Source: Kiritimatiellia bacterium (GTDB lineage: Bacteria > Verrucomicrobiota > Kiritimatiellia > CAIQIC01 > Lenti-01). Taken from it: DNA of 64,000 bases. Of this stretch, positions 1,876 to 39,466 are shown piece after piece. A model generated the notes under the pieces. It made no database searches. It was not told the origin of the DNA and saw only the letters and a list, made by a program, of their open reading frames with translations. How positions within the stretch are numbered: position 1 is the first letter of the stretch; every line of letters begins with the position of its first letter. Position numbers and translations under genes: made by a program. The stretch covers positions 3,189-67,188 of the forward strand of contig JAQUJC010000006.1 of the NCBI GenBank assembly GCA_028681135.1, written 5' to 3'.

Positions 1876-2147
1876 ACATCTTTAAGTACTTTTCGAGGCA
1901 CCGGTCGGGCGCTGCCGCCTCCGGCCCAAAACATCAAATCATAGGACTGACCCCTTTGCTGACCCCTTTGCTGTGCGGTGCTAGGGTAGGGCGAACCCTC
2001 CGGGTGAGCCGGGCGGTTGCGTTTGGCTGTCCGGAAAATCCCGGCTCGGCAGGGACGCCTCGCCCTACCTTTCGGCCACCCCCCCACCTATTTTCAGAAG
2101 CTAAAACTATGAATGGAACGATCCTGAGCGGGAGAATCGGTCGATGA
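1872..2147 (+). pseudogene. truncated N-terminal cassette copy 3 (91 codons)
   Basis: It has the same N-terminal 30 codons as the giant gene, and its stop overlaps the ATG of the giant gene at 2144. Confidence 0.5.
2109..2147 (+). CDS. putative 12-aa leader peptide (MNGTILSGRIGR) translationally coupled to the giant gene; identical uORFs at 1203-1241, 1463-1501 and 1837-1875
   Basis: There is a GGAAG Shine-Dalgarno-like sequence 9 nt upstream. The TGA stop overlaps the main-gene ATG (atgA). The uORF is conserved in all four cassette copies. Confidence 0.4.
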   Translation: MNGTILSGRIGR

Positions 2148-22293: not shown

Positions 22294-23850
22294 TCAGCCG
22301 GCGATGGTTTTCAGGTCATCGTCAGCAGTCGTGATGGGGGTCAGGCCGAACTGTTCGACCAGGACATTGAGCACCGTGGGCGAGACAAACGCGGGAAGCG
22401 TGGGCCCGATACGGATGTTCTTGATGCCGAGGGCGAGGAGCGTCAGCAAGATGCACACCGCCTTCTGCTCGTACCAGGAGAGGATCAGCGAGAGGGGCAG
22501 GTCATTGACGCCGCACTCGAAGACCTTGGCCAGGGTGAGGGCAACCTGAATGGCGGAGTAGGCGTCGTTGCACTGGCCCATGTCCAGCAGGCGCGGAATG
22601 CCGCCGATGTCGCCGAGCTGGTCTTGCAGGTGGTTGAAGCGGAATTTGCCGCAGGCCAGCGTCAGCACGAGGGAATCCTTGGGCGTCTTCTCGACGAACT
22701 GGGTGTAGTAGTCGCGACCGAGCTTGGCACCATCACAGCCACCGACCAGGTAGATGTGCTTGATGGCACCGGATTTGACGGCGTCCACCACTTTGTCGGC
22801 GACGGACATCACCGCGTTATGGCCGAAGCCGGTCATCAGCTCATACGCGCCAGCCGTTTCTTCCGTCCAGCCGCCGAGATCGATGGCCTGTTGGATGATG
22901 GTGGAGAAGTCCTTATGACCAGTATCATCCGCAGCGATGTGCTGGACACCGGGCCACCCGACTTCAGCCGTGGTGGCGAGGTGCTGGATATAGGAGGGGC
23001 GCGGCGGCATGATGCAGTTGGTGGTGTAGAGGACCACGCCGGGCAGGTTGGCAAATTCCTTCTGTTGGTTCTGCCAGGCGGTCCCGAAGTGCCCCTTGAG
23101 GTGCGGGTACTTCTTCAGGCCGGGATAGGCGAGCGCGGGCAGCATTTCACCGTGGGTGTAGATGTTTACGCCTTTGCCTTCGGACTGTTCAAGCAGCATC
23201 TTGAGATCGAGCAAATCGTGGCCGGTGATAATGATGAAGGGGCCCTTGTGTTGCGTGAGCGAGACGCGTGTCGGTTCAGGATGGCCATAGGCACCGGTAT
23301 TGGCGGCGTCGAGCAGCTCCATGCAGGCGAGATTGATCAGGCCGAATTCCATGATCAGCTCGAGCCATTCCTCGACGGTATGCTCATCGCCGAGGGCCTT
23401 CATGCCCTTCTGGAACCAGGCGGAGACCTTGGGGTCGGTCTTGCCCAGGACGCGGGCGTGGGCGGCATAGGCCGCCATGCCGCGCATCCCAAAGAGCAGG
23501 GTTGAACGCAGAGAGACGACATCGGTGTCGCCGTGGAAAAGGTCTTCTGGGCGGTATGTGTTGGCCCCGCCGGCGGCCACAGCCGCCTGCAGAATACGGT
23601 CGCGCATCGCGGCATTGTCCTGGGGGTCAAAGTTGACGTTGGTGATCGTCATAAACAGCGCATCCATGAACAGCGCCTCGAACGTGGGGTTGGCGGGCTG
23701 GCCATCAATGGCGCGGGCGAGAGTAATCAGTGCCGCACTGATTTCATCCTGTAAGTTCGAGACTTCGGGGGGCTTGCCACAGACGCCGGTGCGGGTGCAG
23801 CCGGTGCCGCCTGCGGCTTGCTCGCATTGGAAACAAAACATTTCGCTCAT
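22294..23850 (-). CDS. hcp: hybrid cluster protein / hydroxylamine reductase
   Basis: The N-terminus reads MFCFQCEQAAGGTGC. NVNFDP, GKYGHPEPT, GHDLLDLKMLLEQSEGKGVNIYTHGEML and LGGCDGAK are present, and the C-terminal LSWYEQKAVCILLTLLALG is conserved. A GGAGAA RBS lies upstream. Confidence 0.95.
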   Translation of the reverse strand: MSEMFCFQCEQAAGGTGCTRTGVCGKPPEVSNLQDEISAALITLARAIDGQPANPTFEALFMDALFMTITNVNFDPQDNAAMRDRILQAAVAAGGANTYRPEDLFHGDTDVVSLRSTLLFGMRGMAAYAAHARVLGKTDPKVSAWFQKGMKALGDEHTVEEWLELIMEFGLINLACMELLDAANTGAYGHPEPTRVSLTQHKGPFIIITGHDLLDLKMLLEQSEGKGVNIYTHGEMLPALAYPGLKKYPHLKGHFGTAWQNQQKEFANLPGVVLYTTNCIMPPRPSYIQHLATTAEVGWPGVQHIAADDTGHKDFSTIIQQAIDLGGWTEETAGAYELMTGFGHNAVMSVADKVVDAVKSGAIKHIYLVGGCDGAKLGRDYYTQFVEKTPKDSLVLTLACGKFRFNHLQDQLGDIGGIPRLLDMGQCNDAYSAIQVALTLAKVFECGVNDLPLSLILSWYEQKAVCILLTLLALGIKNIRIGPTLPAFVSPTVLNVLVEQFGLTPITTADDDLKTIAG

Positions 23851-24037: not shown

Positions 24038-24769
24038 TCATTCCTCAAGCAGAGAACCGTCGGTGCTGACGGTGACGATTTGCCATGGTATCATTTTGCC
24101 GCTGGCTTGCAATGCGCGCTTGGCGGCATCGGCGATGCCGCCGCAGCAGGGGACTTCCATGCGCAGGACGGTGAGGCTCTTGATGTCGTTCGCCTGCAGG
24201 ATGGCGGTGAGTTTTTCCGCGTAGTCGCCTTCGTCGAGTTTGGGGCAGCCGATGAGAGTGACCTTGTTTCGCATGAATGTGTTATGGATGTCGGCATAGG
24301 CGAAGGCGGTGCAGTCGGCGGCCACCAACAGCGCGGCATTCTTCAGATAAGGGGCGCCCGGATTGACCAGTTTGATCTGGACCGGCCAGGTCGTCAGCTC
24401 CGAAACCGGTCGACCGGCCGGTGTGGAGTCAGCCGCTTCCGGGGTCGATTTGCGCTCAATCGTCTTGGCCATCTGGCCGGGGCAGCCGCAGGGCAGGGGC
24501 GGTTTTGGAGAGGCTTCGGCCGCCGTCTTCTGTTCGGCCATGCGTGCCTGGACTGCCGCTTCGTCGTACTCGGCGGCTTCGCGCTCGATCATCTGGATGG
24601 CATCAGTGGGGCAGGCGGGCAGGCAGTCGCCAAGCCCGTCGCAGTAGCTGTCGGACACGAGTTTGGCCTTGCCGTTCACCAGTTGGATGGCGCCTTCGTG
24701 GCAGGCGCTGACGCACAGGCCACAGCCGTTGCAGAGGTCTTCGTCGATGGAAATAATTTTACGTATCAT
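24038..24769 (-). CDS. 4Fe-4S dicluster ferredoxin-domain protein with a C-terminal Cys-containing domain of unknown function (hcp-associated)
   Basis: Two CxxCxxCxxxCP motifs are present (CNGCGLCVSACHEG and CDGLGDCLPACPTD). The C-terminal domain (ADCTAFAY...LIGCPKLD...MEVPCCGG) is paralogous to the CDS at 25303-25779. The likely start is the internal Met MIRKII at 24769, which overlaps the upstream gene by 4 bp. Confidence 0.75.
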   Translation of the reverse strand: MIRKIISIDEDLCNGCGLCVSACHEGAIQLVNGKAKLVSDSYCDGLGDCLPACPTDAIQMIEREAAEYDEAAVQARMAEQKTAAEASPKPPLPCGCPGQMAKTIERKSTPEAADSTPAGRPVSELTTWPVQIKLVNPGAPYLKNAALLVAADCTAFAYADIHNTFMRNKVTLIGCPKLDEGDYAEKLTAILQANDIKSLTVLRMEVPCCGGIADAAKRALQASGKMIPWQIVTVSTDGSLLEE

Positions 24770-25203
24770 GCGGGGACCAGTTGGGTTTTGTCTAACGATC
24801 TCGCCAAACTTGCGAGCGTGGTGTGTTTCATGGTTGTGTGGAGCCGTCCATTTTCCTGTTCGATGAGGCGGCCGATGCTGCAAGCGCGCCCGCCACAAAT
24901 TTTGGGATCGAGCAGGCAACGGTGAGGGTGCAGCGGGGGGCCGCCGGCGGCCTCGTAGATATCGAGCAAGGTGATCTGCTGGGCCGGGCGGGCGAGGCGG
25001 ATGCCGCCATGCCGTCCACGTGCGGTCTCAAGCAGGCCGCCACGCACGAGCCGTTGGACAATCTTGGCCAGATGATGAGCAGAAAATCCTAGCTCTTGAG
25101 CGAGTTGCGGAGATGGGCGATAGACACCGTCATCCTCCGCAATCCACAGACACGTGTGGAGCGCAATGGATAGCGATTCAGGAATTTGAAGTATACCGAT
25201 CAT
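24766..25203 (-). CDS. Rrf2-family transcriptional regulator (NsrR/IscR-like, three-Cys cluster ligands)
   Basis: It has a winged-HTH N-terminus and the C-terminal CLLDPKICGGRAC Cys triad. It sits next to hcp. Confidence 0.85.
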   Translation of the reverse strand: MIGILQIPESLSIALHTCLWIAEDDGVYRPSPQLAQELGFSAHHLAKIVQRLVRGGLLETARGRHGGIRLARPAQQITLLDIYEAAGGPPLHPHRCLLDPKICGGRACSIGRLIEQENGRLHTTMKHTTLASLARSLDKTQLVPA

Positions 25204-25302
25204 GGGTGGTTTCTAAACAGGTATTACAATACCAGATATAGGCTCACCCGCAACTATTTTTAGAAAAATAGGAACGCGGGGGGGGCGCGCTAATAGTGCA
25301 GG

Positions 25303-25779
25303 CTAGAGGGTCAGCCACTCGGACTGGCGGATCTCACCATTAATGCCGACGATGATCTCCTTGACGGGAACCTTGCGGGTGGCGGATTCCATGGCGCGGC
25401 GCGCGAGGGCGGACAGCCCGCGGCAGCAGGGCACTTCCATGATCATGACGGTTAGGGTGTTGATGTTGGCGTCGTCGAACCACGCGCGGATTTTATCGAC
25501 GTAGACCTCCTGGTTGCTGTCGAGCTTCGGGCAGGCGATGGCGATGGCTTTGTCCTGGAGGTGGTCGGTGTGGTAGCCGCCGAGGGCATAGGCTACGCAG
25601 TCGGCCGTTAGCACGACGTCGGCCCCCTTGAAATAGGGCGCCAGGGGCGAAATCAGGTGGAGTTGGACTGGCCACTGGCGCAATTGGGATGGTGCCGAGC
25701 CCGGGGCAACCGGTTCGGCGGCGGCTTGGGGTGTGCGCAAATCCATCATCTTTGATCCGGGGCAACCTTGGAAGTTCAT
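25303..25779 (-). CDS. Cys-containing domain protein of unknown function (paralog of the C-terminal domain of the 24038-24769 ferredoxin)
   Basis: Shared motifs include WPVQ.HL..P.APY.K.A..L.AADC.A.A, ...CPKLD... and MEVPCC.G. A GAGG RBS lies 8 nt upstream of the ATG at 25779. Confidence 0.55.
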   Translation of the reverse strand: MNFQGCPGSKMMDLRTPQAAAEPVAPGSAPSQLRQWPVQLHLISPLAPYFKGADVVLTADCVAYALGGYHTDHLQDKAIAIACPKLDSNQEVYVDKIRAWFDDANINTLTVMIMEVPCCRGLSALARRAMESATRKVPVKEIIVGINGEIRQSEWLTL

Positions 25780-25836
25780 GCGTGTTCCTCTCTTTTCATG
25801 CTCGTTTTTACAGGGATGTTGGCTGGAGTCCGGCGG

Positions 25837-26649
25837 TCAGGACGCGTCCTGCGGCGGGGGGATGCCCCAGCGGGTTTCCAGTTTCGCCACGAATTGCTCC
25901 AGTTGTTGGGGCAAGCCGCCGAAGTGGCGGTCCACCTCGGCAAATTGCGCATACATCTGGCCCACCTGAGCATCCAGCAATAGGCGGTCCATCCAGGGAT
26001 AGAGAATCTCGTCTTCCTTGCGGATGTGGTCCCGGAGCAGGTCGGCATAGGCCAGCAAGTGTTTTCCGGCGGCGGTGGCATCCCGCTGCTCGACCGCGGC
26101 GACGATGGCGCGTACGTGTCCGCGGGCAGTCTCGTGATCGGTCCGCATGGCCTTGAGGATGTCCATGTCCGGCGAGAAATAGCCGAAGAGGATGTCTTCT
26201 TCCTTGGCGTGGTGGAACTGGTCGGCATAGGAACGGATGAACTCCACGCCGTTGAGAACGAGTTGGTGGCCCTCGGCGGTAGCCAGATCGGCGCGCTCGA
26301 CCACGTGCGGGATCAGGGCCGCCCAGCGCAAGATCCAGCGGTGCTCGGTCATCAGCTTGCGAATAGGCGGCGAGGTGCCGGCCTGGCCTGTCGCAAAAGG
26401 ACGCCGTTTCCGCAGGGGAACGGGCGCGGTGCGGCCGGGCTCCACTACCCGTGCGATGCGTTCCATCATGTCCCGCTCAGCTTCCGGTTCGAGGTGGTGA
26501 ATGTCGACGATATCCTTGAGCAGGCAGGTGCCCACGCTGCAATCCACGCAGCCAATCTGGAAATCCCCCAGAATGACACCGATGGGCGGGTGCGCCGCAA
26601 TGACGTCCTTGATGGGGTGGTCCAGCGACATTTCGAAAGATGTGGACAT
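25837..26649 (-). CDS. RIC/ScdA/YtfE-like di-iron protein: N-terminal DUF1858 (hybrid-cluster-associated redox-disulfide-like, CxxC) fused to a hemerythrin HHE cation-binding domain
   Basis: The N-terminus carries DCSVGTC. Hemerythrin-like H...H/E...E spacing is present (HRWILRW, FHHAKEEDILF, EDEILYPWMD). The preferred start is the ATG at 26649 with a GGAG RBS; the track ORF begins at a TTG at 26664. Confidence 0.75.
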   Translation of the reverse strand: MSTSFEMSLDHPIKDVIAAHPPIGVILGDFQIGCVDCSVGTCLLKDIVDIHHLEPEAERDMMERIARVVEPGRTAPVPLRKRRPFATGQAGTSPPIRKLMTEHRWILRWAALIPHVVERADLATAEGHQLVLNGVEFIRSYADQFHHAKEEDILFGYFSPDMDILKAMRTDHETARGHVRAIVAAVEQRDATAAGKHLLAYADLLRDHIRKEDEILYPWMDRLLLDAQVGQMYAQFAEVDRHFGGLPQQLEQFVAKLETRWGIPPPQDAS

Positions 26650-26821
26650 GCTCCGGTTCTCCAATTAAGACAATGATGTCTTATATTAGCCCGCGCGGGG
26701 CCATGTCGCAACTGGAATTCCAAAAAAAACGATGGGCGGCCGCTGGCCGAGGGGGCGCTGCGGGGTCATGATTGACGTGATGGGGGCATCTGCTATTTTG
26801 GGAGCCAGGAGTCTGAATCAC

Positions 26822-27256
26822 ATGGCTATCATATCTAAAAGCAGTGAATACGGGTTACGCGCAGCGCTGTACATCGCCGCACGCCCGGTCGGGGACTATG
26901 TTTCGATCGGGGAGATGTCGCAGAAACTGGGCATTTCGTTCCATTTTTTGACCAAGATTCTACAAAAGCTCACCCAGGGCGGTCTGCTGAAATCGAGGCG
27001 GGGGGCCAAGGGCGGCATTGCGCTGGCCAAGCCGGCGGATACAATCTCGTTGTTGGATATTGTCGAAAACGTGGATGGGGCCGACCTGTTCGGCGGGTGC
27101 ATTCTGGGGCTGGTCGGCTGCGGGGTGAAACGCCCGTGCCCCTTGCACCAGCATTGGAGCCGTGAACGCACACGCATCGAAGCGATGTTCCGCAAGATGA
27201 CGCTGCAACGGTTAGCGTGTGAAACCGCGCGCAATCAGTTGCGGCTGGCGGACTAG
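26822..27256 (+). CDS. Rrf2-family transcriptional regulator (second copy)
   Basis: The N-terminus reads MAIISKSSEYGLRAALYIA, the typical Rrf2 wHTH. Its Cys residues are GGCILGLVGCGVKRPCP. It is divergent from the RIC-like gene. Confidence 0.85.
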   Translation: MAIISKSSEYGLRAALYIAARPVGDYVSIGEMSQKLGISFHFLTKILQKLTQGGLLKSRRGAKGGIALAKPADTISLLDIVENVDGADLFGGCILGLVGCGVKRPCPLHQHWSRERTRIEAMFRKMTLQRLACETARNQLRLAD

Positions 27257-27396: not shown

Positions 27397-28518
27397 TCAG
27401 GGCCCTTTCGCGCAACGAAAACCATGGGAATTGCTTTTCGTGATCGGATCGAGGTTGGAACGGCGCGCGACGAACGCAGTGGCCGGGTAGTTGTTCCACG
27501 ATCCGCCCCGCCGTACGCGTTGTGCTCCCGTCGTGGGCCCCTGCGGGTCCGTTGTGTAGCCCGCCGAATAGGGGGCCTCCCAATCCCAGCACCATTCCCA
27601 GACGTTTCCAGCCATGTCGTGCAACCCGTACCCGTTTCCCGGGAAACAACCTGCGGGGCTTGTATACGGTATGCCGTCAGTCTGAAAGTCGGGATGCCAG
27701 CCCGATGCCGGGCTGGTGTCGTAGGAATATAGATTGTCGGCGTAGTAGTTCGCCCGCGCGTGCCGGATGGTGTCTTCGCCCCAAGGAAACAATCGGCGCT
27801 GTCGTCCGCCGCGCGCCGCTTTTTCCCACTCCGCCTCTGTCGGCAGCCGATACCCGTTCGCCGACCAGTTCACCCACGAGTTGCTGATGTCCACATTCCC
27901 GGTCTTGTACACGGTGAAGAAAAAGGGATCGATGTAATAACACGGCGTTAGGCCTTCGTATTGGCTCCGGGCATTGCACCATTTGACGCTATCGTGCCAG
28001 TTCACCATCTGCACTGGATGATTGTTCGTCTTGCCCGACCCTGGATTGTCAAAGGTGTAGCCGTTTGTACCCGCCCAGTTGTACACGTCTTTCCATTTTC
28101 CGTACGTCACTTCCATTTCGTCCATCCAGAATCCGCTGATGAAGTTCGTATGGACCGGTTCCGTGATTCCAATCTGCCCCAGTTCGACCTCGCCACCATC
28201 AATCCAAACCATGCCCAGCGGTGGGGAATGGGTCGCCATCACGACCCGGTAGAACATCGGCACCGAAACCGTGAATTCCGTCGCGCTATGGCCATCCAGC
28301 GAACCGATGTTGTCGAACGTCCGTTGCCACGGCCCGCCCGCCTGCGCGGCCCACTCCACGCGATAGAGCGCATTGCTGTCGATGGCGTTGGTCCATGACA
28401 ACTGCCCGTTGCCAGGAAACGACGTAATGACCGGGTCCTGCCCCAGTACGGCCGACGCCCAAAGCCCCATGATCATTCCGATGATCGCCATCACGCGCAG
28501 CTTGTTCTTCATAGTCAT
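27397..28518 (-). CDS. formylglycine-generating enzyme (SUMF1/FGE) family protein, secreted
   Basis: It has a signal peptide and an N-terminal FN3-like domain. The FGE-family motifs MDEMEVTYGKW, RLPTEAEWEKAARGG, GNVWEW and RGGSW are present. Confidence 0.85.
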   Translation of the reverse strand: MTMKNKLRVMAIIGMIMGLWASAVLGQDPVITSFPGNGQLSWTNAIDSNALYRVEWAAQAGGPWQRTFDNIGSLDGHSATEFTVSVPMFYRVVMATHSPPLGMVWIDGGEVELGQIGITEPVHTNFISGFWMDEMEVTYGKWKDVYNWAGTNGYTFDNPGSGKTNNHPVQMVNWHDSVKWCNARSQYEGLTPCYYIDPFFFTVYKTGNVDISNSWVNWSANGYRLPTEAEWEKAARGGRQRRLFPWGEDTIRHARANYYADNLYSYDTSPASGWHPDFQTDGIPYTSPAGCFPGNGYGLHDMAGNVWEWCWDWEAPYSAGYTTDPQGPTTGAQRVRRGGSWNNYPATAFVARRSNLDPITKSNSHGFRCAKGP

Positions 28519-28632: not shown

Positions 28633-29499
28633 TCAAGGTGCTAGGGGCACGACGGCGCGGGCGCGGTAGAAGCGGTTGGTGGGGAAGGGATCGACGACCG
28701 CGCGAGTCAAGGTAGGGGCACTGCCGGGGGCGAGCAGGCCATGGCCGCTGTCAGCCCAGACCGCGCCGTTGGTCATGGCCGGCGAGACCTCCAGCCGATA
28801 GAGGCGTGTGGGTTCGACGGTCCAGGTCACCGTGTTGGTGGCAGTGGCACGGGCATAGTCGGTAATGGTGAGGTAGCTGGCGAGATCGTCCGGGTCGGTA
28901 TCGGCATGATATTCGTCCACGTCGGACGCTCCATCGAGATCGTGATCTGCGCCACCGTCGCCGAGCAGGGCCAGCGTACCGACCGTTTTCAGTTCCCAGG
29001 CGTCGGGGATGCCGTCGCCATCGCTGTCGGGTCCGGCGTCGAGGGTATCGGTCTGCACGAATGCCTGGCTGTTGCTCAAGCTGATCCAGCCGACATTGGC
29101 ACCCCAGGCGGACCCACTCAAATTTCCGGTCAGCAGGTTCACGCGTGGGTGGCCGTTGGTCTCGAAGACAATCCAACCGATGTTGGCCCCGTAGGCATAG
29201 CCACGCAGATTGCCGAGGCCGTCGTGATTGACACCCCAGTCGTCGGCCGAGGCATTGGAATACTGCCAGCCGTTGGTCGGACCGTTGCCGATCCCGATCC
29301 AGCCACAATTTGCGCTCCAGACAAAACCGGTGCAATACAACTGTCCGATCACCGCGCCGTTGGCTCCGTCGCCGCGCGCATTGATCCAGCCAATGTTGGC
29401 TCCATAGGCCTGGTGATTTACGACGTTGATCGTGGTGGCTGCGGCAGCGATGCCGCATGCGCTCCCGAGCGCTGCGCAGAACGTGAGTAACCGGTTCAT
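28633..29499 (-). CDS. secreted repeat protein (4x YGANIGWI-type repeats) with TSP3-like DSDGDGIPDAWEL motif and C-terminal FN3-like domain
   Basis: It has a signal peptide and repeats of the form Y.ANIGWI/AWGANVGWI. The Asp-rich Ca-binding-like segment is PDSDGDGIPDAWELK...DHDLDGASDVDEYHADTDPDD. Confidence 0.6.
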   Translation of the reverse strand: MNRLLTFCAALGSACGIAAAATTINVVNHQAYGANIGWINARGDGANGAVIGQLYCTGFVWSANCGWIGIGNGPTNGWQYSNASADDWGVNHDGLGNLRGYAYGANIGWIVFETNGHPRVNLLTGNLSGSAWGANVGWISLSNSQAFVQTDTLDAGPDSDGDGIPDAWELKTVGTLALLGDGGADHDLDGASDVDEYHADTDPDDLASYLTITDYARATATNTVTWTVEPTRLYRLEVSPAMTNGAVWADSGHGLLAPGSAPTLTRAVVDPFPTNRFYRARAVVPLAP

Positions 29500-29511: not shown

Positions 29512-31332
29512 CTAGAACGCGTTGTTACCCAGCGGATTCGTGCCGGCATCAATCGCCTGAAGCGGTGCCGTCACATTGCCGCCGGCGTCCAGGAACGGAA
29601 TTTGTGCCGCACCGCTGAGCGTGCTTTCGCGCATGGCGTTGTGAATCCCGACCAACTCGATGCCGACGATATTCTCACTGCATTGGTTGCCGGACAGGTG
29701 GTGACCGTTGCCTTCGATGAGGATGCCCGAGCCTACGTTGCGGAAGACAAGATTATCCGTGATGGACAGGCTCTCACCCGCGGAGACGATCCCGTGCTCG
29801 CCGTTGCCCGTCACCACGACCTTGCTGACAGAACCCGACTGGATGTCATCGTCAGCAATGATGATTCCCCCCGTGGCATTGCCGCTCACAAATCCGCCGG
29901 CCACGACGACTGTGCCGGTGATCGAACCGGCGACGGGTGGTACGCTCAGGCCCGCACCGCTGTTGCCGACCAGATCGTTGGCCTCGAAGATCATCTCACC
30001 CCAGCGATTCACGCCCGAAACGGGCAGTTCGGCGCGGATGCCGTCGCCGCCGTTGTCTGCCGCGCGGCAGCCCGAAAAGCGCCAGATGCCGCCGCGTACG
30101 CTGATTCCTTGGGTGCCGTTGCCGGAGGCGTTGACCCGCCGGACGGAGCCCGGCTTGATGCCGTCATCCCCGAGGACGATCAGCCCGTCCAGGATGTTGG
30201 CGGAAAAGTCAGAACCTTCCAAGTCGATCGAGCCCTTGTCACCCCCCTCGACGTACAGGCCATGCCCGCCGTTGCTGGTAAACTCGCCTTTGACATCCAT
30301 CAGTTTTATGAAGCTGCTCACGGGGCTCAAAACGATGGTCACGCCATTGCCGCCGTTGTCCATCGCTTTGTTGCTCTGGCCTTCGACGCCGGCGAACTTG
30401 ATAAACAAACGTGCGTCCGTTCCAGGCATGTCGATGTTGATCCCATCGCCGCCGTTACGGGAACACTCGCCCTCGACACCATCGATTTTCATGAAGCAGT
30501 CTGCCGCCGCTAAGTCGATATGGATGCCGTCACCACCGTTGTCCTCGAACGAAGTGCCTGAAAAACGGCAAGTGACGCGGACTGTATTCGCGTCGATGAT
30601 CTTCAGTCCATCGCCGGTATTGCCGTTCACCCGGCATGTGTCGAGATCGAGATCCAGCGCCTCGCCGACCGCGGTGGATACCCATGAAATGCCGTCTCCC
30701 GTATTGCCGGAGAGTTCCGACTGGCTGATCTGTATCGCGCCCATGCCGACCAAAACCACGCCGCCGCCGCCGTTGGCGATCGCACGAACGTTTTGGATGA
30801 TGCTCTTCTGCATATCGTGGCTCGTCCTGGCCACGCCGGCCAACCCAGCATCTTTCGCGATAGCATCGATCAGTTCGCCTTTGTTCATCGCCACGCCGTT
30901 GCCGCCGACGCCGTAGATCTGGATATCGCGGATGGAGAGAAAACCCGCATCGGGCGCATGGATGCCGTCGCCGCCCCAGTCGCGCAGCACGCCGTTCCGA
31001 ATCTTCACGTTCTCGACACCGGCCGCCACCTTGATGCCGTGGCCGCTGCCGAGAGGATCGCCGGTCAGGACGAAGCCATTGAGATCGATTGTCACGTCCG
31101 GTGCGGTCACCTCGATACCGTTGCCGGATCCGAGCGACAGATTGCCCGTGACGGCATATGCGCCGGGGTTGGTGATGCTGAACGGCAGCGCGCTGATGAT
31201 CTGGCGCGGCTCGATCTGCTCGAGCGTCCTCATGGTCGCGCTCGGCGCGCCCGGCGGGATCAAGTCCCCCTGCGCCAACGCCCCGCACACCCACACGCTC
31301 CACGCCAGCATTGCTGTCAGGTATTTATTCAT
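29512..31332 (-). CDS. secreted right-handed parallel beta-helix repeat protein (pectin-lyase-fold)
   Basis: It has a signal peptide and multiple NGGDGI/GNTGDG/GNGGNGV repeats spaced ~22-25 aa apart, typical of PbH1 repeats. Confidence 0.7.
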   Translation of the reverse strand: MNKYLTAMLAWSVWVCGALAQGDLIPPGAPSATMRTLEQIEPRQIISALPFSITNPGAYAVTGNLSLGSGNGIEVTAPDVTIDLNGFVLTGDPLGSGHGIKVAAGVENVKIRNGVLRDWGGDGIHAPDAGFLSIRDIQIYGVGGNGVAMNKGELIDAIAKDAGLAGVARTSHDMQKSIIQNVRAIANGGGGVVLVGMGAIQISQSELSGNTGDGISWVSTAVGEALDLDLDTCRVNGNTGDGLKIIDANTVRVTCRFSGTSFEDNGGDGIHIDLAAADCFMKIDGVEGECSRNGGDGINIDMPGTDARLFIKFAGVEGQSNKAMDNGGNGVTIVLSPVSSFIKLMDVKGEFTSNGGHGLYVEGGDKGSIDLEGSDFSANILDGLIVLGDDGIKPGSVRRVNASGNGTQGISVRGGIWRFSGCRAADNGGDGIRAELPVSGVNRWGEMIFEANDLVGNSGAGLSVPPVAGSITGTVVVAGGFVSGNATGGIIIADDDIQSGSVSKVVVTGNGEHGIVSAGESLSITDNLVFRNVGSGILIEGNGHHLSGNQCSENIVGIELVGIHNAMRESTLSGAAQIPFLDAGGNVTAPLQAIDAGTNPLGNNAF

Positions 31333-31494
31333 GGCGAAACCCTCTGTTTTTTATTTGTTTCATCGAGTCCGTCCTCCGCGCTTCTCCACCGGAATTAAGA
31401 CTACAATGTCTTAATATACCACAACACAAACCAGGTCAATAGAAATAGTGGAGAAAATTACGAAAAAAATAACACGGCCGTTATGCCGGCCCCT

Positions 31495-34080: not shown

Positions 34081-35250
34081 TCAGAGCTCGGCGTGTTTGT
34101 CCTTGATTTGGTCCGCCAGTGCGTCCAGGGCCGTGAAATCATCTGCGCACGGAATGCCTTTGCACATCACCGTGCCGAGGAGGTCCACCTTGAGATTGGG
34201 GATCGCGCCGGCGATGTGTTCGACGGCCTTGGTGGCCCAGCCGTACGAGCCGATGACAGCGGCATATTTGACTTTAGGGCGCAGGGCATTGGCCAGATGG
34301 GCCGCATACACGACCGCGGGATGCGGGCCGACCTGCACGGTGGGGGTCCCGATCACGATCGTGGCGGCATCCACCATCGCCATGGCCAGCTTGCCGATAT
34401 CGGTGACGGTCAGATCAAAAACATGGACTTTGACGCCGCGCGCCGCCAGGGCCCCGACCAGGTGGTCGACCATTTGCTGGGTGCTGCCGTGCATGGAAAT
34501 ATAGGGCAGCACGACTTCATTTTTGACCGTATCGGACACCCAGTCGCGGTAGGCATCGAGAATGAACGCCGGGTCGTCATACATCGGCCCGTGGCTGGGG
34601 GCGATGATCTGGATGTCGCGCGTTTCGACTTTGGCGATGTTGGAGCGAATGATCGTCTTAAACGGCATCATGATTTCCGCATAATAGCGCTTGGCGGCTT
34701 CATAGACCGTGGGTGGGTCTGCCACGTAGAGGTCAGTGGTCGCCAAGTGCGACCCAAAGAAGTCGCAGGAAAAGAGGATGCGGTCTTCCGTGAGATAGGT
34801 GCACATGGTTTCCGGCCAATGGACCCAGGGGGTCAAGATGAACTCCAGTGTTTTGCCACCCAGATCGAGGGTGTCGCCATCCTGAACGATCATAAAGCAG
34901 TCCTCGGGCAGGTCGAGCAGGTCCATCAACATGCCCTTGGCCTTGGTATTGGTGACGACCTTGGCGGCGGGATACTTGGCCAACACATGCGGAATGCAGC
35001 CGGAGTGATCCTGCTCCGCGTGCTGCGCAACAATGTAATCGACCGTGTCCACTTCTTCGAGCTGGCGTTGGAGCACATCCCACGTCTCGGGATCGACCGT
35101 ATCCACCAGCGCCACCTTGTCGGTGCCGCGCACCAGATAGGCATTGTAGCTGGTCCCGTCCGGCAGTGGGATCAACGAATCGAAGAGCCGCCGGTTCCAG
35201 TCCACTACCCCCAGCCAACTCACGCCATCTGTGATTTTACGCAATTGCAT
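34081..35250 (-). CDS. flavodiiron protein (FprA/ROO-type O2/NO reductase)
   Basis: It has a metallo-beta-lactamase-like di-iron domain (SYNAYLV, HAEQDHSG) followed by a flavodoxin-like domain. The start was chosen at MQLRKITDGVSW, which aligns to FDP N-termini. Confidence 0.85.
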   Translation of the reverse strand: MQLRKITDGVSWLGVVDWNRRLFDSLIPLPDGTSYNAYLVRGTDKVALVDTVDPETWDVLQRQLEEVDTVDYIVAQHAEQDHSGCIPHVLAKYPAAKVVTNTKAKGMLMDLLDLPEDCFMIVQDGDTLDLGGKTLEFILTPWVHWPETMCTYLTEDRILFSCDFFGSHLATTDLYVADPPTVYEAAKRYYAEIMMPFKTIIRSNIAKVETRDIQIIAPSHGPMYDDPAFILDAYRDWVSDTVKNEVVLPYISMHGSTQQMVDHLVGALAARGVKVHVFDLTVTDIGKLAMAMVDAATIVIGTPTVQVGPHPAVVYAAHLANALRPKVKYAAVIGSYGWATKAVEHIAGAIPNLKVDLLGTVMCKGIPCADDFTALDALADQIKDKHAEL

Positions 35251-35405
35251 CTGCCAATCTCCGTTTAACTGTTCTGTGGACTCATTGGGTTTGAGTCCTC
35301 TGTGTTGTGTTGCGCCTACTTTACACAACGTCGACGAGAAGCGCAAACGGACAGATGAATTCGCTGCGAATACGGGCGGAAGCAACGACAACTCAACAGG
35401 GGGGG

Positions 35406-36674
35406 TTACTGATAAGGGCTGCGCTGGCCGAATTGTGGGCCGCGGTGAACGGCGGCATAGCTGAAATCCTTATCGAGCAGCTTGTGGCGGAAGCGGGATA
35501 CATCGACTTGATCGCGGATCAAGGCACCGTAAAAACCGGATTTCTGAATGTCGCCCACGAATACCATGCCCACGATACGCCCATCTTTTAGCACGAGCTT
35601 CTTGTAGATGGCATCCCCCTCGGACAGGCTGACCACTTCGACATTCTCCCGGCTATCGCTGTCCACCAGCACCTGACCAAGGGAAATCGCCGGAATCTGA
35701 TGAAATTGAACGGCATTCTGGATGCCGACAGCACCGGTATAGGGCCGAGTCCGGCCAGCCATGTTATAGGCGGCGTACTTGCCTTGCAACACGGCATTGA
35801 ACCAGGTGGCCGAGGGCATTCGCTTGCCGGTACTGACGTCATCGATTTCGATGGCGTCGCCGGCGGCAAAAATGTGGGGGGCCGAGGTTTGCAGCCGATT
35901 GCTCACCCGAATACCCCGTGCCGTTTCGAGACCGGCTTGAGCCGCCAAGCCCTTGTTGGGCTCGGTGCCGGTCGCCACGATGACGAAATCGGCCTGCACC
36001 TGGGGCTTTTCGGCGAGCATGACGCCGGTGGCGCGGTCAGACCCGTTAATCGCGGCTACGCTTTGGTTGAGAATGATCTGGACGCCCATCCGTTCCAGAT
36101 CCCGGTGGATAATGGTGGCGCCTTGGGCGTCGAGTTGGTTGGGCAGGATTTGGCCGCAGCGTTCGACTACGGTCACCTTGAGCCTCTTGCGTGCCAACGC
36201 ATAGGCGGCCTCCAGCCCGGCAAATCCTGCGCCGATGATCGCGACGGTTTGCGTCGGTGATGTTTGGGCGGTGATCGCCTGGGCATCTTTTAGGGAATGG
36301 AAGGTGCAGACGCCCTCGAGGTCGCAGCCCGGGATGGCGGGCAACCAGGGGCGGGACCCCGTGGCCAGCAGCAATTTATCGTAGACGACGGTTTCTCCGT
36401 TGTCACAGATCACCGTGTTGGAGCCGGGTCGAATGCTGGTGACCCGCACGCCGGAGGAATAGTGAATCCGGTGATCGGCCGCAAAATGATCGGTCTTGAA
36501 ATACAGGTCACGTTCCTGCAGGCGCCCGTCTGCGTAGCGTGAAATCAGGCAACGCGAATAGGGCGGTCCGGCCTCTTCGGTGAGGATGCGGATGTCTCCG
36601 TCCGGGTCGAGTTTCCGGAGGTCTTCGGCGGCTTGTGCGCCCGCCGCGCTGGCACCGATAATGACATAGGTCAT
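35406..36674 (-). CDS. FAD-dependent pyridine nucleotide-disulfide oxidoreductase, NAD(P)H:rubredoxin oxidoreductase (NorW/NROR-like)
   Basis: The start MTYVIIGASAAG carries the GxGxxG motif, and a second dinucleotide site VAIIGAGFAGLE is present. The true start at 36674 overlaps the cooF-like stop (ATGA). Confidence 0.8.
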   Translation of the reverse strand: MTYVIIGASAAGAQAAEDLRKLDPDGDIRILTEEAGPPYSRCLISRYADGRLQERDLYFKTDHFAADHRIHYSSGVRVTSIRPGSNTVICDNGETVVYDKLLLATGSRPWLPAIPGCDLEGVCTFHSLKDAQAITAQTSPTQTVAIIGAGFAGLEAAYALARKRLKVTVVERCGQILPNQLDAQGATIIHRDLERMGVQIILNQSVAAINGSDRATGVMLAEKPQVQADFVIVATGTEPNKGLAAQAGLETARGIRVSNRLQTSAPHIFAAGDAIEIDDVSTGKRMPSATWFNAVLQGKYAAYNMAGRTRPYTGAVGIQNAVQFHQIPAISLGQVLVDSDSRENVEVVSLSEGDAIYKKLVLKDGRIVGMVFVGDIQKSGFYGALIRDQVDVSRFRHKLLDKDFSYAAVHRGPQFGQRSPYQ

Positions 36675-37168
36675 GGTACATTTCCTTTGGCGTTGAAAAC
36701 TGGTTCGGGTACGTCGCTCACCGCCAGCACGTTCATGGGACAGGCGGCGACGCACGCCGGGGTGTCTAGGTTCGGGCACAGGTCACACTTCAAGGCCACA
36801 GCAAAGGAAGATTGATCTTCGCCGCCCGCGTCGTAGGACGGTGAAATAACACCATAGGGACAGGCCATGATGCACATCCAGCAACCTACGCACTGCTGCT
36901 CGTGGCCGACGTTGTTGACGATTCCTGTCTCGGGGTCTTTCTGCATGCAGCCAGCCATGCAGGCGCTGACGCACAGCGGCTCGACGCAATGGCGGCACAC
37001 CAGCGGCACGGGTCCGCGGTCGTATTCGATCAGAATGCGGCTCTTGGGCTCCGGCTTTTCCAGCGTGGCGAGGGCGGCGTTGCCCGCGCGAGAATGCGCG
37101 GCGATGCACGCTTGTTCGCATCGGCGGCAACCTGTGCAGTCTTCAGCTGTTACAGTCAGTTTTTTCAT
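36671..37168 (-). CDS. cooF: CooF-like 4Fe-4S ferredoxin (iron-sulfur electron-transfer subunit)
   Basis: Four Cys clusters are present (CTGCRRCEQAC, CRHCVEPLCVSAC, CVGCWMCIMACP, CDLCPNLDTPACVAACP). It lies immediately downstream of cooS. Confidence 0.8.
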   Translation of the reverse strand: MKKLTVTAEDCTGCRRCEQACIAAHSRAGNAALATLEKPEPKSRILIEYDRGPVPLVCRHCVEPLCVSACMAGCMQKDPETGIVNNVGHEQQCVGCWMCIMACPYGVISPSYDAGGEDQSSFAVALKCDLCPNLDTPACVAACPMNVLAVSDVPEPVFNAKGNVP

Positions 37169-37190: not shown

Positions 37191-39080
37191 TCAGGACTTC
37201 TTGAGGCCGAGCGCTCCGCGCTTGGCGGCGATATGCGCTTCGATGGCGTCTGCGGCCTTCACGGGGTCCTGTTCAACAAAAACTCGGCCACCGGTCAGGC
37301 TTTCGACGTCCTGGGTCAGAATGCGGGTGACCAGCGGACTACCCATGATCGGTGGGGCCGGCGAGAGGTGCAGCGCCATCCCGAAGGCCACCGCTGTGAA
37401 CGCGTCCGCCACCGCCTTCTGTTCCATGTATTCGGGTGCCGATGCCACCACGGGCAGGTCCGGCACGTCCACGCCCAGCGCGTCTGCGACGGCCACGACG
37501 GTGGCGATGATCTTGCCGATGTCGGTGCAACTGCCGTAGGACAGGCAGGGCGGCACGCCCAGCGCGCCACACACTGAGGCGAGGCCGGGGCCCGCATGTT
37601 TGACCGAGTCGGTGCCCATGAGTCCCGCGTTTTGCATCGCGCTTGAGCAGCAGCCCGCGCCGATGACCAGGATATTGCGCTTGATCAGTTCACTCGCCAG
37701 CGTGGCGATATGCGCGCCCGACTCGCCTTCGCGGACCGTCGTGCACCCCACCAGGGCGGCAATGCCCTGCACCGAGCCGTTGGCAATCACGTCGATCAAC
37801 GGCTGGACGGTTCCGCCGAGCGCGCCGATTACGCTTTCCGTGGTGAAACCGGCAATGGCGGTTTGCTGGGTCGTGGGCACGTTGACGGCCCCGCGCTTTC
37901 CGAAGGCCGTGACAGCACGGTCGAGAATCGCCTCCGAAATGTCCACGGCCGTGTGCGGTTCGAATTCCAACCGTTCCACGCCGCCTTGCCGGATGACCTT
38001 GTCCGTGGAAATTAGGTGGGTGTGATATTTCGGAGCAAACTGTTCCGCGATGCTGGGCATGACGCAGTTATAGTCGAAGGCCAGCACGTCCACGGCTCCC
38101 GTGGCCAGCATCAATTCCTGCTGAATCCAGTTGCCGATCTGGCCGTAAAAGACGTCCTTGTATTCGGAGGCAATATTGAAGATTTGCTGGCCCTCGCACA
38201 GCGAGCCGTAGATTTTCAAGCCATTTTTGGCCCCGGCCTGCCGGGCCTTCTCCTGCCAGTTCTGCTTGCGCGCCGCCTCCAGAACCTTGATGGCCAGCAG
38301 GGGCTGGTGCCCGTGCATAATCACGTTGACGGCGTCCGGGTCGAGAACTCCGATATTGACCGAACCTTCGTTGGGCTTGGCCGTTCCGGTCAAGATTTCC
38401 TGCATGACGGTGATGCAGAATAGGCCGGCATATTCGTTGGCGATGCCCATGCGCAGGCAATGCGACAGCAGGTCTAGCACATCGTTGTTCACGTTGGTCA
38501 TCGTCTTCGACAGGCCGGTCGCTACTTCCGAGTTGGGACCGCCCGGAACGATGCCCAGCTTGCGCCAGACCGCAAGACGTTTCGGCGGTGCCAGGACGTC
38601 GACGAGCCGCATGGGGTCGTAGTCATTGCTGTTGATCTGCTGGATAAAGAGCGCACCGAGGTCACGCGCCATCTCCAGATCGGAGCCGCCGATGTCAAAC
38701 TGGGCCGCGAGTGCGCGCAATTTCTCCGGTTCCTTGATGGCATAGTCGGCCTGGCCTTCGCCGACAGCCTGCAGGGTGCGGGCCACATTGCGGGCATGGT
38801 AGACGTTGGCGGCGGTGCCCTGAGCACACTTGGCCAGCAGGTTGCGTGTCACGATCAGGTCGGCGGATGCGCCGCACACGCCGCGGTCGGCCTTGCGGGT
38901 GATCTGGCACGGACCGTCCGTGCACAGCGTGCAGCAGATGCCGAGTGTTCCAAAGGCGCATTGCGGCTGCTGGGCCGCGAACCGCTCATAGATCGTGGTC
39001 ATCCCATCCTTGCGGGCGACTTCATACATGTAATCGGACAGGCCGTCCGCCGGCTGGTTGCGATACTCAATGGTTTTCAT
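37191..39080 (-). CDS. cooS: anaerobic Ni,Fe carbon-monoxide dehydrogenase catalytic subunit
   Basis: The N-terminal cluster motifs are CAFGTLGICCTLCTDGPCQI and GVCGASAD. Its ~630 aa length, HGHQP, and the GCTTVREGESGAH and GAGCCS C-cluster regions are typical of CooS/CODH. Confidence 0.9.
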   Translation of the reverse strand: MKTIEYRNQPADGLSDYMYEVARKDGMTTIYERFAAQQPQCAFGTLGICCTLCTDGPCQITRKADRGVCGASADLIVTRNLLAKCAQGTAANVYHARNVARTLQAVGEGQADYAIKEPEKLRALAAQFDIGGSDLEMARDLGALFIQQINSNDYDPMRLVDVLAPPKRLAVWRKLGIVPGGPNSEVATGLSKTMTNVNNDVLDLLSHCLRMGIANEYAGLFCITVMQEILTGTAKPNEGSVNIGVLDPDAVNVIMHGHQPLLAIKVLEAARKQNWQEKARQAGAKNGLKIYGSLCEGQQIFNIASEYKDVFYGQIGNWIQQELMLATGAVDVLAFDYNCVMPSIAEQFAPKYHTHLISTDKVIRQGGVERLEFEPHTAVDISEAILDRAVTAFGKRGAVNVPTTQQTAIAGFTTESVIGALGGTVQPLIDVIANGSVQGIAALVGCTTVREGESGAHIATLASELIKRNILVIGAGCCSSAMQNAGLMGTDSVKHAGPGLASVCGALGVPPCLSYGSCTDIGKIIATVVAVADALGVDVPDLPVVASAPEYMEQKAVADAFTAVAFGMALHLSPAPPIMGSPLVTRILTQDVESLTGGRVFVEQDPVKAADAIEAHIAAKRGALGLKKS

Positions 39081-39466
39081 GGCTGCGCGTTCCTTTTCTG
39101 AGTTTGCGGCAATCTGTATGGGGATTCACATCGGGTTGGCTCGGGATTGCGAGGGAGGGGGGGGCCCGTCCCATTCTGCCGCTTCCGCGGCCCGAACCAG
39201 ATCGTCCGGGACAAATAAGACATTTTAGTCCGATATGTCAAGCGGGAACAGGATGACGACGGGGCGGTGGGGCGGGGACGGGGCAGGAGGCAAGTGCGGC
39301 GACTCGCAGATGTGTCCGGTGCGCTCCACCCTGACCGGAACGGATGATCCGGATTTGTTCTACGTTTTATAGCGGATATGGCCAGTTCCTTCTGTAAGGT
39401 GCGTCTGGTTGAGTGATCGGGCAAAATGGCCTGACCGGGTCCGCGAACTAGCCTGGATTATTCAGG

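Follow-up and report, generated by a model that had tools for sequence, protein, structure and literature searches.

A palindrome at three operon promoters of a Kiritimatiellia bacterium as the probable operator of an NsrR-like Rrf2 repressor

In Proteobacteria, Bacillus and Streptomyces, NO is sensed by the Rrf2 repressor NsrR, and to our knowledge the operators and regulons of NO-sensing Fe-S Rrf2 repressors have been worked out almost only in these groups. In IscR, the cluster is held by Cys3His ligation, and type-1 IscR operators carry GAC...GTC-like half-sites in a palindrome of ~25 bp. HcpR and DNR are members of the CRP/FNR family, which are usually activators that act from about -41.5. 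The NsrR-type regulon includes nirK, norB, nnrS, hcp and dnrN, and the classical NsrR box reads gATGyAT-N5-ATrCATc, while HcpR and DNR control hcp, hemerythrin-like, ferredoxin-like and denitrification genes via promoter palindromes (PMC1274295). Moreover, an enrichment of Rrf2 genes next to clade II nosZ has been noted (PMC6264515). No published description of the operator reported here, or of an NO regulon in Kiritimatiellia, was found in the literature (RegPrecise lay outside the scope of this search).

The window, i.e., the whole 64-kb stretch of Kiritimatiellia DNA that was analyzed, has a GC content of ~60%, lower than the ~65% assumed in an earlier note made from the sequence alone. That note had proposed that one palindrome is shared by the upstream regions of a hemerythrin-domain gene and of a gene for a secreted beta-helix protein, and both copies are indeed present. 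The first starts at 26663 and had been placed one base off, at 26664; the second starts at 31393, as claimed, and its 24-mer ends at 31416. A third copy, which was absent from the earlier list, is more degenerate (ATAAGAC-ATTTTA-GTCCGAT, 39211-39238) and was found by the weight-matrix scan only. All three copies in the window are located in promoter regions:

26663-26686, no strand: operator copy 1, AATTAAGAC-AATGAT-GTCTTATAT (24-mer AATTAAGACAATGATGTCTTATAT), core 26666-26683, matrix score 37.0 bits, hemerythrin/AF_0155 operon downstream
31393-31416, no strand: operator copy 2, AATTAAGAC-TACAAT-GTCTTAATA (24-mer AATTAAGACTACAATGTCTTAATA), core 31396-31413, matrix score 32.3 bits, beta-helix operon downstream; a perfect palindrome and the second strongest site of the window
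39213-39236, no strand: operator copy 3, AAATAAGAC-ATTTTA-GTCCGATAT, core 39216-39233, matrix score 26.9 bits, cooS operon downstream

After these three sites, the best weight-matrix score in the window was 8.3 bits. With up to 2 mismatches, TTAAGAC-N6-GTCTTA was found at 2 loci in 64 kb versus 0.16 expected, a count that was reached in none of 100 shuffles, and the 24-mer with up to 3 mismatches gave 2 matches in the window versus 0.00 expected; the earlier statement that such matches are unlikely by chance therefore stands. The distances to the gene starts also agree with those given before, the core being 16 nt away from the hemerythrin ATG at 26649 and, for the second copy, 63 nt away from the beta-helix ATG at 31332.

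All three copies appear to overlap sigma-70-like core promoters, a placement that is typical of a repressor. The three operon promoters are consensus matches read by hand, two of which fall under the scan threshold; together with the predicted promoter of the divergent regulator gene, the sites are:

26683-26711, minus strand: promoter-like site of the hemerythrin operon, -35 TTGCGA (26711..26706), 17-nt spacer, -10 TAATAT (26688..26683), palindrome abutting
31413-31439, minus strand: promoter-like site of the beta-helix operon, -35 TTGACC (31439..31434), -10 TATATT (31418..31413, 15-nt spacer) or TATTAA (31416..31411, 17-nt spacer), palindrome overlapping
39213-39241, minus strand: promoter-like site of the cooS operon, -35 TTGACA (39241..39236), 17-nt spacer filled by the palindrome, -10 TTATTT (39218..39213)
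26772-26799, plus strand: promoter-like site of the Rrf2-A gene, TTGACG-16-TATTTT, conserved in the related loci L081 and L082

On the strand of the regulated gene, copy 1 lies between TTGCGA-17-TAATAT and the ribosome-binding site of the hemerythrin gene. This promoter shows 8 of 12 consensus matches, slightly below the scan threshold, and its -35 and -10 hexamers are kept in L081, L082 and L086, the -10 being TATAAT in the latter two. The palindrome covers the -10/start-site region at the hemerythrin and beta-helix promoters and fills the spacer between -35 and -10 at cooS, a layout that is also found in L082 (TTGACA-17-TTATAT). Phylogenetic footprinting showed at all three promoters that the -35, the -10 and the palindrome have been kept amid diverging flanks. 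At the beta-helix promoter, a footprint alignment with L082/L086 showed that TTGACC, the -10 and the palindrome are kept while the remaining intergenic DNA has diverged, which argues for selection. Copy 1 is ~85 bp from the predicted Rrf2-A promoter, and autoregulation is therefore not evident in the window genome.

Two Rrf2 genes flank the hemerythrin operon, one of which is divergent from the hemerythrin and AF_0155-family genes:

26822-27256, plus strand: Rrf2-A, the proposed cognate repressor, 144 aa, with C93, C100 and C106 invariant and H109 nearly invariant
24766-25203: Rrf2-B, the second Rrf2 of the locus, 39% identical to Rrf2-A, with a different recognition helix

Rrf2-A passes the cut-offs of Pfam Rrf2 (PF02082; 105.9 bits, cut-off 30) and TIGR00738 (104.6 bits, cut-off 73.3) and fails those of the NsrR equivalog NF008240 (63.2 bits, cut-off 182) and of the IscR equivalogs TIGR02010 (65.4 bits, cut-off 207.55) and NF008110 (44.9 bits, cut-off 275). 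All solved Rrf2 proteins are similarly distant from it, the best match being the redox sensor RsrR and the weakest being ScNsrR (5n07, E = 3.9e-4). Among 10 aligned Rrf2-A sequences C93, C100 and C106 are invariant, giving a ligand pattern of C-x6-C-x5-C-x2-H, and both these cysteines and the recognition-helix segment ISFHFLTKILQKL are kept in orthologs down to 48% identity. The promoter of Rrf2-B has its own conserved palindrome, GGTAT-N4-ATACC, which occurs only once in the window. Taking into consideration that Rrf2-B differs in overall sequence, in its recognition helix and in its own palindrome, the TAAGAC operator is assigned to Rrf2-A.

Like NsrR, Rrf2-A is a winged-helix protein of the Rrf2 family with three conserved cysteines, its putative operator is a palindrome of ~23 bp or more that overlaps core promoters, and its predicted targets include NO and denitrification genes (nirK, norB, nnrS, di-iron and hcp-type genes) as well as, in several lineages, its own gene. 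By comparison with NsrR, however, the operator is TTAAGAC-N6-GTCTTAA and not gATGyAT-N5-ATrCATc, the score of the protein is 63 against a cut-off of 182, its hosts belong to the FCB and PVC phyla, and a CODH operon, clade II-type nosZ clusters and the operon of a secreted beta-helix protein are among its candidate targets, with no hmp seen. Rrf2-A resembles IscR in its similar bit score (65) and its similar Cys...Cys...Cys-x2-His pattern but falls below the cut-off of 207.55, has no isc or suf targets and has a GAC-GTC spacing of 6 nt. Gene sets overlapping with those of HcpR and DNR are found as well, and TTGAY-N4-RTCAA boxes occur at hemerythrin orthologs elsewhere, whereas the sites described here are TAAGAC-N6-GTCTTA at repressor positions, linked to a gene of another protein family, Rrf2. 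Since the NsrR and IscR cut-offs were failed and the operator is unlike the classical NsrR box, Rrf2-A would seem to be NsrR-like in its working and to represent a separate Rrf2 subfamily; it is not a demonstrable NsrR ortholog.

In nine loci, which belong to Kiritimatiellia, Bacteroidota and Balneolota, the palindrome accompanies orthologs of Rrf2-A with 48-80% identity, and it was present in every contig fetched for the graded orthologs. The loci include:

L081: Rrf2-A ortholog of 80% identity, site at the hemerythrin gene
L082/L086: orthologs of 72% and 69%, sites at the hemerythrin gene and cooS, degenerate copy at the beta-helix gene
L097 (held out of the matrix): ortholog of 68%, sites upstream of the hemerythrin gene (36.7 bits) and cooS (37.2 bits)
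L088: ortholog of 62%, sites before nirK-FGE-SCO1-nnrS and upstream of the regulator gene
L090: ortholog of 60%, sites before P450-nnrS, the regulator gene and nirK
L095 (Cecembia lonarensis): ortholog of 48%, sites before the regulator gene and norB
L096 (Aliifodinibius): ortholog of 54%, sites before the regulator gene and cyt c-nosZ-nosL-nosD

Across the ortholog loci, the sites thus precede the hemerythrin gene, cooS, nirK, P450-nnrS, norB, cyt c-nosZ and the regulator gene. The regulator gene, or a short ORF preceding it, has a site 9-66 nt upstream in four lineages, and in L090, L095 and L096 the site lies 9-15 nt upstream of the Rrf2-A gene itself. The operator consensus is wTTAAGAC-N6-GTCTTAAw (wTAAGAC-N6-GTCTTAw for 17 sites, with an almost invariant AGA/TCT core). 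The site orthologous to copy 1 is kept in L081, L082, L086 and L097, and that of copy 3 in L082, L086 and L097; copy 3 was also recovered by matrices built without the window sites. The counterpart of copy 2 in L082/L086 is degenerate (TAAGAC-N6-ATCCTA, 2 of 12 core positions mismatched) and its -35 is conserved. A matrix trained on L088 and L090 only still ranked the window sites at the top, with scores of 28.6, 27.7 and 20.0, the next being 11.2. The full matrix gave no match of at least 25 bits in 1.05 Mb of unrelated loci, and it is clean only at this threshold, lower ones giving many false matches in AT-rich control genomes.

The earlier suggestion of a common regulator, plausibly the Rrf2 encoded at 26822, is thus strengthened by the co-occurrence of the palindrome with orthologs of this protein in nine loci of three phyla. 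Its assignment to a nitrosative-stress or N-oxide regulon is likewise favored by the other apparent targets of the motif, i.e., nirK, nnrS, P450, norB, nosZ, hemerythrin and the cooS operon. No isc or suf genes were found beside any site in the ortholog loci examined, and hmp was not seen among the targets. The window itself contains no nirK, nnrS or P450, and the link to NO therefore rests on the neighborhoods of the orthologs and on the hemerythrin and flavodiiron-type genes.

The operon downstream of copy 1 consists of two genes, which are predicted to be co-transcribed:

25837-26649, minus strand: hemerythrin-domain protein ("RIC-like"), 270 aa, Hemerythrin domain at residues 95-219, weak DUF1858/TIGR03980-like N-terminus
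25303-25779, minus strand: AF_0155-family protein, 158 aa, PF27217 on its orthologs

The label "RIC-like" used before proved loose; the hemerythrin domain is there, but a profile search found no ScdA_N domain in the window protein, which excludes it from RIC/YtfE/ScdA. A true gene with ScdA_N and Hemerythrin domains is present, separately, in L081 and had no tblastn match in the window. The hemerythrin/AF_0155 gene pair is kept in L001 and L040. A terminator-like site follows the AF_0155 gene (25291..25273), and beyond it lie Rrf2-B, a ferredoxin/AF_0155 fusion and an hcp-like gene (22294-23850). Upstream of 80 hemerythrin orthologs from many phyla (1.05 Mb), the motif was absent save for one match, in L040, that is probably due to chance. 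In several other PVC genomes (Lentisphaerota, Kiritimatiellia), CRP/FNR-type TTGAY-N4-RTCAA boxes were found upstream of the hemerythrin orthologs instead, which suggests that the regulator may have been replaced at the same target gene.

The genes found downstream of copy 3 are:

37191-39080, minus strand: CooS-type Ni,Fe-CO dehydrogenase catalytic subunit, 629 aa, TIGR01702 692.8 bits (cut-off 478)
36671-37168, minus strand: CooF-like 4Fe-4S ferredoxin, 165 aa, Pfam Fer4_11
35406-36677, minus strand: FAD/NAD(P) oxidoreductase with Pyr_redox_2 and Rubredoxin_C, third gene of the cooS operon
34081-35253, minus strand: flavodiiron protein, after the cooS operon

The cooS-cooF-oxidoreductase operon is also found in L082, L086 and L097, and, taken together with the flavodiiron gene, it presumably resembles the stress-linked CODH-IV type of gene cluster. 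On the minus strand after the flavodiiron gene follow genes for an FNR-like reductase, a DHOD-like protein and a PEMT/ICMT methyltransferase, and then a terminator-like hairpin. An assignment of the 629-aa Prismane-family gene as hcp was rejected in favor of CooS (TIGR01702 693 bits versus 41 bits for the hcp model). The best PDB match of the protein was CooS-V (7b7q, 504 bits). The hybrid-cluster subclade of CooS-V is characterized by exchanges of Cys295 to Glu and of Gly41 to Cys (PMC9311411). The aligned positions of the window protein carry Cys (YGSLCEGQ) and Gly, so that it was not taken as a CooS-V; the retention of both residues points to a CODH of the canonical type and not to the hybrid-cluster variant.

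The third operon, downstream of copy 2, encodes three secreted proteins:

29512-31332, minus strand: right-handed beta-helix protein, 606 aa, signal peptide, Pfam Beta_helix
28633-29499, minus strand: partner protein, 288 aa, GANIGWI repeats and TSP3-like Ca-binding motifs
27397-28518, minus strand: FGE-sulfatase-domain protein, 373 aa, Pfam 164.8 bits, last gene of the operon

The AF2 model of the beta-helix protein (pLDDT 87) gave generic fold matches, i.e., polysaccharide lyase, alginate epimerase and phage tailspike, with TM-scores of at most 0.47. NosD was absent among its top 50 fold matches, and a reading of the protein as NosD was rejected, there being no adjacent nos genes and only generic Beta_helix in hmmscan. 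The 288-aa partner is a member of a PVC protein family that is very large and conserved but without annotation, and its AF2 model (pLDDT 49) was unusable. The beta-helix/288-aa gene pair is conserved. The FGE-sulfatase gene is part of the operon in the window genome only and is missing from the operon of L082/L086. Its product was not accepted as NirV, as it shares 27-28% identity over ~160 aa with the FGE proteins of the nirK operons in L088 and L090 and as the window has no nirK.

A terminator-like hairpin (31491..31476) is found just upstream of the beta-helix operon, which would therefore need its own promoter. An origin of this promoter from that of cooS by deletion was rejected, because cooS still has a site of its own in the window and the beta-helix gene of the relatives is likewise preceded by its own site. 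The beta-helix pair is missing from the otherwise equivalent locus of L081 and L097. Beta-helix orthologs of 47-51% identity (L092-L094), whose beta-helix/290-aa pairs are placed in unrelated neighborhoods, have no site of at least 12 bits and no Rrf2 neighbor, and a search of metagenome contigs with the beta-helix protein gave no matches. The DNA of L082 and L086 is near-identical in the beta-helix region, so that the two effectively amount to one independent confirmation. The earlier idea that the exported beta-helix protein is tied to the regulon is thus borne out in that promoter and operator are kept in the sister lineage L082/L086, but the site is lineage-restricted, and the operon appears to have joined the regulon specifically in the window lineage and L082/L086. 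A role of this operon in surface or matrix remodeling is speculation.

Taken together, it is probable that the palindrome is the operator of the NsrR-like Rrf2-A, that this repressor is of the nitric-oxide type and that the regulon comprises three operons, including the recruited beta-helix operon. In the proposed mechanism, a dimer of Rrf2-A would carry an Fe-S cluster, held by the three invariant cysteines and possibly by His109, and would bind the palindrome and block RNA polymerase. Damage to the cluster by nitric oxide, or by a related nitrosative or redox signal, would then release the repressor. This would de-repress the hemerythrin/AF_0155 operon, the cooS-cooF-oxidoreductase operon, possibly with read-through to the flavodiiron gene, and the beta-helix/288-aa/FGE-sulfatase operon. 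As the target set is the published set of NsrR, NO sensing by Rrf2-A through an Fe-S cluster appears to be the most likely mechanism.

The sites are AT-rich in a genome of 60% GC, promoters are AT-rich anyway, and palindromes can fold (-7 kcal/mol), so that the copies might be put down to chance similarity, to remnants of a repeat element or to a hairpin in the 5' leader RNA. This is extremely improbable in view of the shuffle statistics, the positions kept in orthologous promoters of three phyla and the occurrence of only three copies in 64 kb, all at promoters. Moreover, the 17 sites show 20 half-site deviations that break the symmetry and no compensatory one, which indicates a protein operator and not an RNA hairpin; combined with the weak hairpin energies of the sites (-3.5 to -7 kcal/mol) and the lack of any Rfam family match to them, this rules out an RNA hairpin or a known RNA family. 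With the matrix trained on L088/L090 and the held-out L097 added to the shuffles and the uncompensated half-sites, the reading as chance, repeat or hairpin is effectively refuted. A genuine operator could also be bound by another factor. One candidate is Rrf2-B, as the hemerythrin operon has an Rrf2 gene on either side. The other is a regulator of the CRP/FNR type from another part of the genome, as AAGAC-N6-GTCTT has the 5-6-5 geometry of CRP-type boxes and CRP/FNR-type boxes are found at the hemerythrin orthologs of other PVC genomes, where that family thus controls this gene. This is very unlikely, however, because sites adjoin Rrf2-A orthologs without an Rrf2-B or CRP/FNR gene nearby (L088-L091, L095-L097) and lie directly before the Rrf2-A gene in L090, L095 and L096, and because Rrf2-B has another recognition helix, a palindrome of its own and only 39% identity to Rrf2-A.

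Binding by Rrf2-A would also be compatible with a sensor of Fe-S status, O2 or general redox state in the manner of IscR or RsrR, the regulon then being an anaerobic or redox module. The absence of isc and suf genes near any site and the recurrence of nirK, norB, nnrS, P450 and di-iron hemerythrin, which correspond to the NsrR set (PMC1274295), make such a signal unlikely, even though the C-x6-C-x5-C-x2-H pattern is similar to the Cys3His ligand set of IscR, Rrf2-A scores equally well with the IscR and NsrR models, the best PDB match of Rrf2-A is RsrR, and the targets cooS and nosZ do not encode NO-detoxifying enzymes. Somewhat less unlikely, on balance, is that the beta-helix copy only reflects how the locus arose: the pair would have entered between Rrf2-A and the cooS operon, and its site would have been picked up or reached by drift, with no adaptive co-regulation. 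The loci without the pair (L097, L081), the distant beta-helix orthologs without a site, the degenerate site in L082/L086 (2 of 12 core mismatches) and a fold that gives no hint of N-oxide chemistry would all fit this view. Nevertheless, copy 2 is a perfect palindrome and second in strength in the window, the -35, the -10 and the operator are kept in comparison with L082/L086 where the rest of the intergenic region has diverged, and the upstream terminator-like hairpin calls for a promoter of the operon's own.

With Rrf2-A taken as the NO-responsive repressor, these results provide a concrete operator prediction for an Rrf2 subfamily beside nirK, qNor and nosZ clusters in Bacteroidota, Balneolota and Kiritimatiellia, groups in which little is understood of how N2O and NO turnover is controlled. 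The pair of regulator and operator is also present in assemblies that are not MAGs (Cecembia lonarensis and Aliifodinibius sp.), so that direct testing would be possible if these strains are cultured. Two unexpected NO-regulated functions, the cooS-cooF-oxidoreductase operon and the secreted beta-helix operon, are predicted in an uncultured Kiritimatiellia lineage. A wider reading, which is possible but on the doubtful side, is that an NO-responsive Rrf2 subfamily, separate from NsrR and not described before, with the operator TTAAGAC-N6-GTCTTAA may be the local master switch for denitrification modules of FCB and PVC bacteria (nirK, qNor and clade II-type nosZ), and that in Kiritimatiellia it may have been re-wired to a CODH operon for electron supply and to a secreted, polysaccharide-active beta-helix module. 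If this is true, NO sensing would be coupled to remodeling of the cell surface or matrix.

The hemerythrin-domain gene is paired with a gene for a protein of about 158 aa from the AF_0155 family, as in the following loci:

Window 25303-26649 (minus strand): hemerythrin/AF_0155 pair.
L001 633-1903: hemerythrin/AF_0155 pair in a Lentisphaerae MAG, the locus of the closest hemerythrin-gene ortholog.
L040 10004-11264: hemerythrin/AF_0155 pair in Nitrospirae.

The pair was also found at loci that carry orthologs of Rrf2-A, the proposed repressor for the TAAGAC-N6-GTCTTA operator. Many bacterial phyla, and archaeal MAGs as well, contain orthologs of the hemerythrin gene with about 45-63% identity; no sequence match for the protein was found in the PDB. 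Directly after the pair, L001 encodes a 2,459-aa secreted RHS/YD-repeat-like protein (1940-9319), a further example of a large exported protein downstream of the hemerythrin/AF_0155 operon.

CRP/FNR-type boxes (e.g., TTCTTGACCTCCGTCAAGAA), which resemble HcpR/DNR-type boxes, were identified approximately 60-130 bp upstream of hemerythrin-gene orthologs from other genomes of Lentisphaerota, Kiritimatiellia and Victivallales (L004, L075, L076, L078 and L079). The presence of these boxes elsewhere suggests that the regulator has been replaced at one and the same target gene, hemerythrin. L001, with its 63% identical ortholog, carries GATAGTA-TAT-TACTATC in place of a CRP/FNR-type box.

The second Rrf2 gene of the window, Rrf2-B, is associated with a palindrome that differs from the Rrf2-A type:

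Window 25220-25233: GGTATTACAATACC (GGTAT-N4-ATACC), overlapping the promoter-like region of Rrf2-B.

This palindrome occurs only once in the window and is kept in the relatives L082 and L085 (alignment A5). It probably serves as the operator for autoregulation in a second Rrf2 system; besides Rrf2-B, this system would include the hcp-like gene (22294-23850) and a ferredoxin/AF_0155 fusion. A perfect, AT-rich inverted repeat, CTATTTTT-CT-AAAAATAG, is located at 25254-25271, with the Rrf2-B promoter on one side and the terminator-like hairpin 3' of the AF_0155 gene on the other.

For Rrf2-A itself, a weak half-palindrome (TTTAAGRC-N6-GTCCGAA, 15 bits by weight matrix) overlaps the ribosome-binding site and start in two relatives:

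L097 2432-2459: weak half-palindrome.
L082 4137-4164: weak half-palindrome.

The window counterpart scores below 8 bits. The half-palindrome could represent an autoregulatory site of low affinity, or else no more than a 5' leader that has been conserved.

The CooS-type CODH encoded under the operator (37191-39080) is closest to CooS-V (7b7q, 504 bits) and CODH-IV (6elq); despite its greatest similarity being to CooS-V, it retains the canonical Cys295 and Gly41. The trio of cooS, cooF and a FAD/NAD oxidoreductase gene is kept beside Rrf2-A in L082, L086 and L097, and in the window it is followed downstream by a flavodiiron protein gene. Since no TAAGAC-type site was found in the 152-bp gap upstream of this gene, it may be under separate control or be transcribed by read-through from the cooS operon. 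The same gap contains an inverted repeat, TTGTGT-N12-ACACAA (35305-35328).

Another secreted protein is encoded in the window:

Window 28633-29499: 288-aa secreted protein with GANIGWI repeats and TSP3-like Asp-rich motifs.

Its family is very large (>4,300 matches at E < 1e-5, typically with ~60% identity) and has no Pfam model; the AF2 model of the 288-aa protein has a pLDDT of 49. Some genomes carry several copies, and the genes repeatedly adjoin those for large secreted beta-helix or He_PIG proteins.

Rrf2-A orthologs on two Kiritimatiellia contigs adjoin a further set of genes:

L088 10529-14488: N-oxide module.
L090 8698-17845: N-oxide module.

The set consists of nirK (as a cytochrome c fusion), a NirV-like FGE-sulfatase gene, SCO1, nnrS, nrfHA and a P450 gene. 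Together these genes make up a compact N-oxide module; denitrification is not a topic usually discussed for this phylum.
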